A stretch of 64,000 nucleotides of DNA from an uncultured Thermoleophilia bacterium (GTDB lineage Bacteria; Actinomycetota; Thermoleophilia; Gaiellales; Gaiellaceae). Of this stretch, positions 7,680-53,685 are shown one piece after another (positions within the stretch are counted from its first letter, which is position 1; every line of letters starts with the position of its first letter). The DNA lies in assembly GCA_963827525.1 (NCBI GenBank), contig CAWHBH010000001.1, forward strand, positions 1,863-65,862. The letters are read 5' to 3'. The notes under the pieces were generated by a model. That model worked only from the letters and a program-made list of their open reading frames with translations, was not told the DNA's origin and did not search any database. The position numbers and the translations under genes were made by a program.

Positions 7680-8470
7680 TCCGGGTCTCGCTTGTTGGCG
7701 CCCGTCTCGTCGATCCGGCGGCCGATGTCGGCGAGATGGCGCCAGTGCTTGCCCGCGTCTTCCCACCAGCCGACGACTTCGGAGGCGTCGAGGCGGCTGA
7801 CGAGCGCATAGTGGCGATTCACGTCCGTGATCTCGAGCTCTCCTCGCGTCGACGGAGCCAACGTGTCGATCACGTCGAAGACGTCCGGCGGATAGCAGTA
7901 GAGGCCGACCACGGCGTGCGAGGACGGCGGCGTATCGAACCGTGTATCGACGACTCCGGCCTTCTCGACGATGTCAGCCACCTCGCCCTCCTCGTCATAT
8001 ACGACGACACCGAAGTTCTCGGGGTCCTCTACCTCCTTCACGAAGATGTGCGCGCGGGTCGAGCTCGCGGCCCAGTTGCGCAACACATCCGATTGCGCGA
8101 ACTCGAAGATGTTGTCGCCGAGAACGACTACGAGCGGCGCTCCCGCCGCGAAGTCGCTCGCCATGCCCACCACCTGCGCTATTCCGCCCGGCTCGGTCTG
8201 CACCTTGTACGTGAGATCGAGCTCCAGGATCGGATCGCCGCCGCCGCGCGGGGCCAGTCGCCCGTCCCCGAGAAGGTCGATCATCTGGCCTGCGTGCCCT
8301 TTCCCCGTGACGAGAAGGACATCGCGAATGCCAGCGAGCTGGAGCAGCTGCAGCGGGTAGTAGATCATCGGCCAGCTCCCTACCGGGAGCAGGTGCTTGT
8401 TCGCAACACGCGTCAGCTCGCCTAGGCGCGTGGCTTCGCCTCCGGCGCAGATCAAGCCTTTCGGAAGCAC
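7676..8470 (-). CDS. rfbA: glucose-1-phosphate thymidylyltransferase-like sugar nucleotidyltransferase
   Basis: N-terminal GLICAGGEATRLGELT (GxGxR nucleotidyltransferase loop). First gene of the rfbA-C-D-B operon. GTG start at 8470. Confidence 0.75.
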   Translation of the reverse strand: MLPKGLICAGGEATRLGELTRVANKHLLPVGSWPMIYYPLQLLQLAGIRDVLLVTGKGHAGQMIDLLGDGRLAPRGGGDPILELDLTYKVQTEPGGIAQVVGMASDFAAGAPLVVVLGDNIFEFAQSDVLRNWAASSTRAHIFVKEVEDPENFGVVVYDEEGEVADIVEKAGVVDTRFDTPPSSHAVVGLYCYPPDVFDVIDTLAPSTRGELEITDVNRHYALVSRLDASEVVGWWEDAGKHWRHLADIGRRIDETGANKRDPE

Positions 8471-8479
8471 GGGAGGATG

Positions 8480-8638
8480 CTAGTGGTCCTCCGGGAGTAC
8501 GCCACCCCTTCGCGCGGCTGCGAACACATCGCATGCCGTCGTCCTCGGTCGGCCACATACCTTTGGTATGCGGCCTCCCTGCGTCCTAGGCCTGCTCGGT
8601 TCTCGCCGGCGAATGGGCACCGGACTTCCCGGAGAGAC
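8480..8638 (-). repeat. hairpin-rich repeat, copy 1 (leader of the rfb operon); MIRU-like element or structured RNA, family unknown
   Basis: Aligns with 26701-26870. By eye there are 3 substitutions and 3 single-base indels over ~160 nt, with a 73-nt identical block. Four stems have A-C mismatches on the plus strand that become G-U pairs on the minus strand. Confidence 0.6.
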
Positions 8639-8672
8639 AGTGCCTGGGGTCTGCGCCTACAGGTCGACCGCG

Positions 8673-26700: not shown

Positions 26701-26870
26701 CCTAGCGGTCGCTCCGGGAGATACGCCACCCCTTCGCGCGGCTGCGAACACTTCGCATGCCGTCGTCCTCAGTCGGCCACATACCTTTTGGTATGCGGCC
26801 TCCCTGCGTCCTAGGCCTGCTCGGTTCTCGCCGGCGAATGGGCACCGGACTTCCCGGAGAGACCACTAGG
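26701..26870 (-). repeat. hairpin-rich repeat, copy 2, filling the accD-accA intercistronic gap
   Basis: Near-identical to 8480-8638. 10-bp terminal inverted repeat CCTAGCGGTC / GACCACTAGG. The accD stop TAG (26868-26866) lies inside the terminal repeat. Confidence 0.6.
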
Positions 26871-53611: not shown

Positions 53612-53685
53612 TGGGCGATCGTGGACTCGAACCACGGACCTCCGCCTTATCAGAGCGGCGCTCTAACCAGCTGAGCTAATCGCCC
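53612..53685 (-). tRNA. tRNA-Ile(GAU): tRNA-Ile (anticodon GAU)
   Basis: Minus strand GGGCGAUUAGCUCAGCUGGUUAGAGCGCCGCUCUGAUAAGGCGGAGGUCCGUGGUUCGAGUCCACGAUCGCCCA. Cloverleaf with anticodon loop CU-GAU-AA and T-loop GGUUCGAGUCC. CCA is not fully encoded. Confidence 0.9.

Follow-up and report, generated by a model that had tools for sequence, protein, structure and literature searches.

Several families of small interspersed repeats approach the element described here, some in their mobility features and others in their fold. The closest are the Correia element of Neisseria (CREE/NEMIS) and the IS630-derived MITEs RUP and Nezha, together with MITEs of the IS5/Harbinger type. Correia and IS630 MITEs are, like the present element, non-coding units of 100-200 bp with inverted termini of 20-26 nt and a duplicated TA, and they are present as tens to hundreds of intergenic copies that are co-transcribed as hairpins. 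A preference for CTAG as the target is classic IS630 behaviour, and TA duplication in CTAG is IS630-like; duplication of TA, TNA or TWA is typical of groups of the IS5 superfamily (IS427, IS1031) and of their eukaryotic Harbinger/Tourist relatives. Actinobacterial members of the IS5 family were reported to 'recognize three nucleotides' as their insertion site (PMC2516522).

Structural likeness is also found in the ERIC/IRU sequences of enterobacteria and the Rickettsia palindromic elements (RPEs), which are imperfect palindromes of about 127-150 bp. Both lie in transcribed intergenic regions and form long RNA hairpins, and orientation-dependent effects have been discussed for them in the literature. 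MIRUs are direct repeats of 40-100 bp that form tandem arrays and are oriented with the operon. REPINs, the RAYT-mobilised doublets of REPs, are high-copy extragenic elements in which two inverted halves form a long hairpin, and they are thought to act as single-stranded hairpins; REPs themselves measure 20-40 bp, and one of their ends is marked by a conserved tag, GTAG or CGTC (PMC3733652).

The present element is about 168 bp long (165-169 bp) and non-coding, and two copies of it were studied in a 64-kb stretch of DNA, hereafter the window. It is placed among MITEs because it is small and non-coding, with inverted termini, TA/TNA duplications, dispersed copies and polymorphic sites, and it probably represents a non-autonomous MITE family, widespread in the Gaiellaceae and other Thermoleophilia, that is moved in trans by a DDE-type transposase. 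In contrast to the Correia and IS630 MITEs, it is palindromic throughout and not only at its ends, its sister family B duplicates a 3-bp TNA, and it has variable termini and an invariant interior with a one-strand signature of wobble pairs and G·A mismatches. With the IS5 derivatives (IS427/IS1031, PIF/Harbinger-Tourist) it shares the duplication of TA in CTAG or of a 3-bp TNA/TWA, TAA and TTA being the dominant duplications in family B. ERIC/IRU and the RPEs differ from it in being without clear target duplications or a defined transposase logic, RPEs moreover insert in frame into genes, and neither has the conserved asymmetric core. REPs have conserved ends and no target duplication, whereas here the ends are variable and TA/TNA is duplicated. 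The element is thus an ordinary MITE in its mobility signature but unusual in what is conserved.

The initial annotation had likened the repeat to the MIRU class. The likeness is confined to an intercistronic position in some cases and a stop codon overlapping the repeat end; the element consists of one palindromic unit, has inverted termini and duplicates its target, and its copies lie in both orientations relative to genes, mostly antisense. What that annotation proposed in general was a repeat family beyond Rfam with a one-strand wobble signature, which was borne out, and a MIRU-like, operon-oriented RNA, for which a MITE is the better explanation because of the inverted termini, the TA/TNA duplications, the dispersed copies and the empty orthologous sites.

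Copies in the window and in related genomes

The two copies and their parts are located as follows.

8480-8640 (end approximate), minus strand: copy 1, a decayed family-A element, near-identical to copy 2 and on the same strand
8468-8483, minus strand: native insertion site of copy 1, CTAGCAUCCUCCCGUG, with the CTAG target, a -10-like TAGCAT (8477-8482) and a GTG start (8468-8470)
26702-26869, minus strand: copy 2, which is complete (168 nt, family A; CTAGTGGTC...GACCGCTAG) and fills the accD-accA intercistronic gap, sense to the operon
26849-26869, minus strand: inverted repeat at the 5' terminus of copy 2 (CTAGTGGTCTCTCCGGGAAGT), whose CTAG includes the accD stop codon TAG (26866-26868)
26800-26838, minus strand: 5' core of copy 2 (TTCGCCGGCGAGAACCGAGCAGGCCTAGGACGCAGGGAG), with the super-core AGGACGCAGGGAG at 26800-26812
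26776-26799, minus strand: apical hairpin of copy 2 (GCCGCAUACC-AAAA-GGUAUGUGGC), of subfamily-variable sequence with the pairing kept
26732-26775, minus strand: 3' core of copy 2 (CGACUGAGGACGACGGCAUGCGAAGUGUUCGCAGCCGCGCGAAG), not the complement of the 5' core
26702-26722, minus strand: inverted repeat at the 3' terminus of copy 2 (ATCTCCCGGAGCGACCGCTAG), which pairs with the 5' one and so forms the rod's base

That the window holds two near-identical copies on the same strand was confirmed, except that the identical block is 77 nt long (8562-8638 = 26787-26863) and not 73 nt; in the adjoining 67 nt the copies are 97% identical. A profile HMM of 97 family members found these two copies only in the window, as would be expected of a simple local duplication or of chance similarity confined to it. 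Such an origin can be dismissed, since searches of genomes and metagenomes gave dozens to hundreds of copies in unrelated contexts, in several Gaiellaceae/Thermoleophilia MAGs and in soil metagenomes, and relatives have an empty site orthologous to each window copy. A 24-mer of the 5' arm occurred at 36 loci in species-representative genomes, about 27 of them within a single Gaiellaceae MAG, often at the end of a contig, and the remaining ones in five further Thermoleophilia/Gaiellaceae MAGs, and a 22-mer of the 3' arm was found in at least 120 soil and sediment metagenome contigs. Searching IMG/VR with the super-core pattern added one ordinary copy, located at a TAG stop, and the PLSDB plasmids gave no match to the element. 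Family-A copies, aligned with their flanks, are about 97% identical to one another. Copies are single units, with only one head-to-tail pair (L099), and at one locus (L032) a gene pair is flanked by two inverted copies.

The suggestion that this is a genuine repeat family with no Rfam model to explain it was upheld. Rfam gave nothing at the gathering score in the 64-kb window and only chance-level matches at E-value thresholds for copy 1 and four other family members, and riboswitches, ribozymes, small RNAs and 6S RNA were accordingly rejected as identities. A coding role was also rejected; a 56-codon open frame spans the element, but 1-nt indels and compensated stem changes exclude it. No account of this family was met with in the literature on Gaiellales or actinobacterial MITEs, and the family, being absent from Rfam and from the literature searched, is previously undescribed.

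Copy 2 occupies exactly the interval between the stop codon of accD and accA, in agreement with the placement first proposed, and it must be co-transcribed within accD-accA. It would thereby put a hairpin of about 80 bp and roughly -111 kcal/mol, devoid of a U tract, into the operon mRNA, and cleavage by RNase III or a changed stability of the accD-accA mRNA is a plausible consequence. An intrinsic terminator was considered for both copies and rejected, as a GC-rich hairpin with a U tract is absent in or near them, and no terminator-like site was detected in or beside either copy on either strand.

Copy 1 stops 9 nt short of the GTG start codon of an RmlA-type nucleotidyltransferase gene (NTP_transferase assignment), the first gene of an rmlA-C-D(-B) cluster. 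Its 3' end, CCACTAG, is intact at 8480-8486; its 5' terminus has lost CTAG/GTGG and its 3' repeat has a 2-nt deletion. The initial annotation had described this copy as lying in the leader of rfbA, which is doubtful. The CTAG into which it inserted overlaps the conserved -10-like TAGCAT, 6 nt upstream of the GTG, and copy 1 may therefore lie upstream of the transcription start, with rmlA possibly leaderless. By its sequence, TAGCAT would fit the actinobacterial TANNNT and could be the -10 box of rmlA; a two-hexamer promoter scan gave no match. Probably copy 1 sits just upstream of the rmlA promoter, where it would take the place of the native upstream region and the duplicated TA would keep TAGCAT.

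Window and family loci recovered by the searches shared no synteny and hence offered no empty sites, which were instead found through protein homologues in AccD and RmlA-region relatives (L157-L163). Homologues of AccD place the source of the window in the Gaiellaceae. At the accD-accA site two 99% relatives (L157, L158) have the element, whereas L160 has an empty site (...CCCTAG|GCAGTG...). In a Gaiellaceae MAG with 91% AccD identity (L159) the site holds only AGACCACTAG, the last 10 nt of the element, a remnant of deletion or excision. The site upstream of rmlA is without the element in L161 and L162 (90-92% identity), both of which conserve CTAGCATCC(N3)GTG. The element is present there in a 99% relative (L163), with the 5' end CGAGTGGTC. 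Compared with L163, window copy 1 has lost four more bases as well as two bases from the 3' repeat, which marks it as an old, decaying copy. Both window copies are ordinary insertions, of which copy 1 is the older and is decaying.

Termini, target sites and the putative parent transposase

Every complete copy carries 21-nt inverted termini, CTAGTGGTC(T/G)CTCCGGGAAGT, at both ends, and the whole unit is an imperfect palindrome over its full length. Family A, to which the window copies belong, has the ends GTGG..., and family B has its own complementary termini, with the ends GTGC.... Copies cease to resemble one another exactly outside CTAG...CTAG, beyond which their flanks are unrelated. For the target-site counts, copies were anchored on their GTG...CAC ends. 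Family A is flanked as C-TA|...|TA-G in 38 of 55 copies, a pattern in which duplication of TA is indistinguishable from duplication of CTAG. In family B the same 3-bp triplet stands on both sides in 17 of 41 copies, set in C-TNA-G, and the flanking triplets differ in 20 of 41; the matching triplets were TAA (nine), TTA (seven), TCA (one) and CTA (two). Variable triplets that nevertheless match within one subfamily indicate a real staggered-cut duplication. Insertion is into C-TA-G by family A and into C-TNA-G by family B, with TA or TNA duplicated, and the footprint would be left by the staggered cut of a DDE-type transposase supplied in trans.

The family of this transposase is inferred from the duplication pattern alone, as IS5-superfamily-like or IS630-like. 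TA duplication in family A fits IS630, but family B duplicates 3 bp; the pattern of the IS5 superfamily (IS427/IS1031/Harbinger-Tourist) is compatible with both families. About 0.9 Mb of loci and the PLSDB plasmids were examined and yielded no autonomous element that shares the termini; none of the loci contained orphan termini possibly flanking a transposase, or an IS5-type or IS630-type transposase, or matching IS5-type termini.

Several candidate parents were rejected. Members of other IS families have landed in the element, an IS481-family member at an internal CCTAGG (L036) and IS1595-family members in the apical loop (L037, L130/L039). The former is bounded by TGT...ACA ends of its own and by a 6-bp duplication of CCTAGG; the latter are flanked inside the apical loop by 8-bp duplications (TTCGTGAA, TGCAGGCA), and the apex is empty of an IS1595-family IS in L134. 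The gene pair between the inverted copies of L032 looks, by eye, like an ordinary membrane-protein/MoxR-type ATPase operon and not like a RAYT, and the variable termini and TA/TNA duplications also speak against a REP/REPIN-RAYT system. A PATE of the IS200/IS605 type, which inserts 3' of a fixed tetra- or pentanucleotide, has neither inverted termini nor duplications, and this element has both.

Fold and conserved cores

The initial annotation described the repeat as hairpin-rich, and copy 2 indeed folds far better than its shuffled versions on both strands, with -111.3 kcal/mol (z -9.7) on the minus strand and -89 kcal/mol (z -5.9) on the plus strand. The fold, however, is one continuous rod, a single imperfect hairpin across the whole element, and not a set of four or five hairpins. 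Structure and conservation were analysed in an alignment of 97 distinct copies (A3). The rod has 63 pairs, of which 34 have changes on both sides, and 95.1% of the cells are paired against 83.9% in shuffles. Its covariation score of 0.335 compares with 0.148 for shuffled controls and with 0.04-0.10 for controls in which the partners were slid. For example, pair 45-126 changes from G-C to A-U in 19 copies of different backgrounds, and in the apical hairpin nine of the 16 pairs of the helix have changed on both sides. Of the stems that had been proposed, the closing one and the hairpin at the apex, GGCCGCAUACC/GGUAUGUGGCC, are real, but the three other local hairpins show no covariation, with a score of 0.070 against 0.072 in shuffles.

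Conservation is inverted in comparison with a typical MITE, with variable but compensated termini and helices and an invariant, asymmetric interior. Mean pairwise identity among the 97 copies is 94-95% in the 5' core, a segment outside every metagenome search pattern, as compared with 67% in the terminal stems and 59% in the apical hairpin. Conservation of the 3' core is partly ascertained, because 22 nt of it served as the metagenome search pattern; its non-ascertained part has a mean pairwise identity of 82%. In unselected by-catch copies the super-core persists, as they keep just AGGACGCAGGGAG-[hairpin]-CGACYGAGGACGAC. The 5' and 3' cores are mutually non-complementary and face each other in the rod, where G-C pairs are interspersed with tandem G·A/A·G mismatches and one A is bulged; on the opposite strand these mismatches would be C·U/U·C. 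Both arms carry AGGACG as a direct repeat on the same strand. A hammerhead was considered on account of CUGAGGA in the 3' core and was rejected, since the U is C in many copies, the arrangement of helix II and GAAA is missing, and Rfam gave no match.

Strand polarity and orientation to genes

The strand-specific G-U signature proposed at the outset is a property of the family, though weak in the family-A consensus alone (3 G·T vs 1 A·C). Pairs predicted on the sense strand comprise 453 G·U and 70 A·C cells; the corresponding counts are 456 and 114 when the pairs predicted for the two strands are pooled, and 276 and 66 for the 57 pairs common to both predictions. Seventeen pairs have at least five G·U cells and two pairs at least five A·C cells. 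Some of the wobbles have become fixed throughout a subfamily; for example, 44 copies have U·G at pair 9-164, and 55 have G·U at pair 68-101. Private changes, i.e., one-sided changes in a copy relative to its six nearest relatives, turned Watson-Crick pairs into G·U 107 times and into A·C 48 times (p = 2e-6). At unpaired sites the spectrum is symmetric, with 42 C>T plus A>G changes and 44 G>A plus T>C changes (Fisher p = 0.002 vs paired sites), which points to selection rather than mutation bias; the orientation of host transcription was found to be irrelevant as a source of such a bias. Such an excess of G·U on one strand is not what simple cut-and-paste of double-stranded DNA would lead one to expect.

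The earlier proposal that the RNA of the gene-sense strand is under selection could not be maintained, because the bias persists in antisense-inserted copies. The ratio of G·U-creating to A·C-creating changes was 42:23 in copies antisense to the gene that reads into them; it was 15:12 for sense copies and 48:13 for those that no gene reads into. As the bias is independent of host gene orientation, the constraint is on the element's own strand and not on host mRNA. For orientation to genes, which like the stop-codon statistics rests on gene calls made with our own simple, crude GC3-based caller, 23 sense and 47 antisense cases were counted among genes whose stop codon abuts the element (p = 0.006), and 10 and 25 among copies between co-directional genes (p = 0.017). 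Co-orientation with operons therefore holds for the two window copies only, both of which, being sense, belong to the minority; across the family both orientations occur, antisense about twice as often as sense.

These data largely refute a cis-acting structured RNA, operon-oriented in the manner of MIRUs and selected in host transcripts, which we consider very improbable. Such an RNA would account for the co-orientation of both window copies with their genes, for the very stable fold of the sense strand and for the G·U excess on the sense strand of these copies. It would also suit the five differences between the accD-accA copy of the window and its orthologues in the 99% relatives, all of which are structure-neutral on the sense strand (loop changes, G·U to G-C, A-U to G·U); as a sign of sense-strand constraint they are suggestive only. 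Besides the mixed, antisense-leaning orientation and the G·U bias of antisense-inserted copies, it is opposed by neighbouring genes that are unrelated and follow no regulon logic, by the sharp termini, target duplications and empty sites, by the absence of a terminator-like tail, and by the position of copy 1, probably upstream of the transcription start. The one-strand constraint does not serve host gene regulation.

The invariant core and the one-strand pattern of wobbles and G·A mismatches point to the importance, for the element, of a folded single strand with a definite polarity. The strand-specific rod, the wobbles and the purine-rich core probably serve propagation of the element through a folded single strand, either ssDNA, in mobilisation or replication, or RNA. 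One form of this would be a mobile element that acts or is moved as such a strand, as an ssDNA hairpin recognised by an HUH/Y1-type or another structure-specific enzyme, after the manner of REPIN/RAYT or IS200/IS605-PATE, or as a protein-bound RNA, with the tandem-G·A core beside the apical hairpin as the recognition module. The polarity is intrinsic to the element, some wobbles have become fixed throughout subfamilies, the cores do not vary whereas covariation extends to all helices, the tandem mismatches are G·A/A·G on the sense strand and C·U/U·C on the other, and AGGACG is repeated on the same strand of both arms, all as would be expected; a two-to-one bias in gene orientation would also be expected if one strand matters in replication. 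We nevertheless regard this form as distinctly unlikely. Matching TAA/TTA/TCA triplets represent a staggered-cut duplication, which HUH/ssDNA transposons do not make, and true target duplications are thus a poor fit for a pure ssDNA mechanism of the HUH type. Inverted termini of 21 nt are atypical for IS200/IS605 and REP elements, and neither a RAYT/Y1 nor any other candidate gene was found adjoining any copy. As for an RNA, no promoter was found inside the element, and one that contained both termini would have to start outside it, which fits poorly with the result from the antisense copies.

The MITE preferred here could also be a transposon in which selection acts on a folded single strand and not on the duplex ends, a rod of interchangeable helices built about the invariant, purine-rich tandem-G·A core next to the apical hairpin, with the core read on a single strand, either in ssDNA during mobilisation or in an element RNA that a conserved partner binds. 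This is a tentative proposal that we judge rather unlikely, but if it were true it would imply a structure-guided mechanism of mobility or control that has not been described for TA/TNA-duplicating MITEs. The inverted conservation and the strand-intrinsic wobble bias make the family a testable case of a MITE constrained as a folded single strand, and its partner, whether a transposase, a host factor or an RNA-binding protein, could, once identified, reveal how elements of this sort are recognised in an abundant but barely cultivated soil lineage.

Target choice also bears on where the copies are found. With about 85% GC at third codon positions, CTAG/CTNAG sites are largely stop codons, and the copies therefore pile up at gene ends with the stop kept; accD, for example, retains its TAG because targeting of CTAG/CTNAG leaves the stop codon intact. 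By the gene calls described above, the stop codon overlaps the terminus of the element, T(N)A(G), in roughly 57 of the 91 genes that end within 150 nt of a copy. This is a clear case of stop-codon targeting through a CTAG/CTNAG preference in a high-GC lineage. In Gaiellaceae/Thermoleophilia MAGs the family is the reason for many breaks in contigs and odd hairpins between genes; it also misleads gene callers, rmlA being cut to 230 aa in element-bearing genomes.

Apex modules and nested insertion sequences

Extra modules were found at the apex of the element in some subfamilies (apex region of the fetched loci L074, L085, L087, L112, L041, L137, and L039). Module type 1 adds a second hairpin, GGGGUCAGAC...GUCUGACCCC, in which the copies differ by compensatory changes, and type 2 is a hairpin, CCCCAGGAAGUGC-GCA-GCACUUUCUGGGG, positioned ahead of the 3' core; judging from these additional hairpins, the element is modular.

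The element itself also serves as a target for insertion sequences (ISs).

IS insertions in element copies
L037:3040-4100; L130:5928-6030; L039:5397-5690; L134:5450-5565: IS1595-family insertions and family-B apex
L036:193-1206 (also L002:1-188 and L016): IS481-family IS inside the element

The apical loop of family-B elements is the exact insertion point of two different IS1595-family ISs, one of which encodes a 321-aa transposase (domains PF12762/PF12760), with 8-bp duplications TTCGTGAA and TGCAGGCA; the apex in L134 is intact and uninterrupted. These exact positions suggest that the palindrome tip is a preferred target of the two ISs. The element's internal CCTAGG in L036 holds an IS481-family IS, which encodes a 309-aa transposase (NF033577) and is flanked by a 6-bp CCTAGG duplication, and thus CTAG-seeking ISs nest in the CTAG-rich element.

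Sites of the two window copies

One Gaiellaceae MAG (JBOHAY01, L159:3850-3880) has just AGACCACTAG, the final 10 nt of the element, left between two CTAGs where accD meets accA. This is the footprint of a deletion or excision and points to an old insertion, lost afterwards.

At the site of copy 1, the RmlA-like gene is preceded by a conserved CTAGCATCC(N3)GTG in the window and in two element-free relatives (L161 and L162).

Conserved site upstream of the RmlA-like gene
window 8468-8483, minus strand: CTAGCATCC(N3)GTG
L161:1485-1503; L162:1485-1503: CTAGCATCC(N3)GTG

TAGCAT, which fits a -10 box, lies 6 nt before the GTG, and a Shine-Dalgarno sequence is absent before this GTG; the mRNA may therefore be leaderless. 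Public gene calls cut the RmlA-like protein to 230 aa in element-bearing genomes (P0181, P0203, and P0206), and it is 264 aa elsewhere.

Rfam gave no match in the window besides one tRNA gene, whose anticodon loop CUGAUAA contains GAU (Ile).

Rfam match
window 53612-53685, minus strand: tRNA gene (RF00005, 70.8 bits)

Clustered copies and contigs of other assignment

Element copies were also clustered or arranged head-to-tail.

Head-to-tail or clustered copies
L099:4237-4602
L152:8970-9344
L105:1-248

Two units in L099 meet at ...GACCAC-GAA-GGTCTC..., the second bearing a 14-nt internal insertion, and L152 holds three partial or complete copies inside 400 nt.

One copy, at a contig end in an 'Acidimicrobiia' bin (JAWOIO01, L013), is identical to copies in loci of the Gaiellaceae bin JAWOIV01. 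Both bins come from the sample CWP5-2, and the L013 copy probably reflects the mis-binning of a contig that ends in a repeat rather than cross-class spread. A divergent copy was present on an IMG/VR contig classified as viral (UViG_3300026300_000009, L164:540-710), and its start is the TAG stop of a gene, as in other copies.
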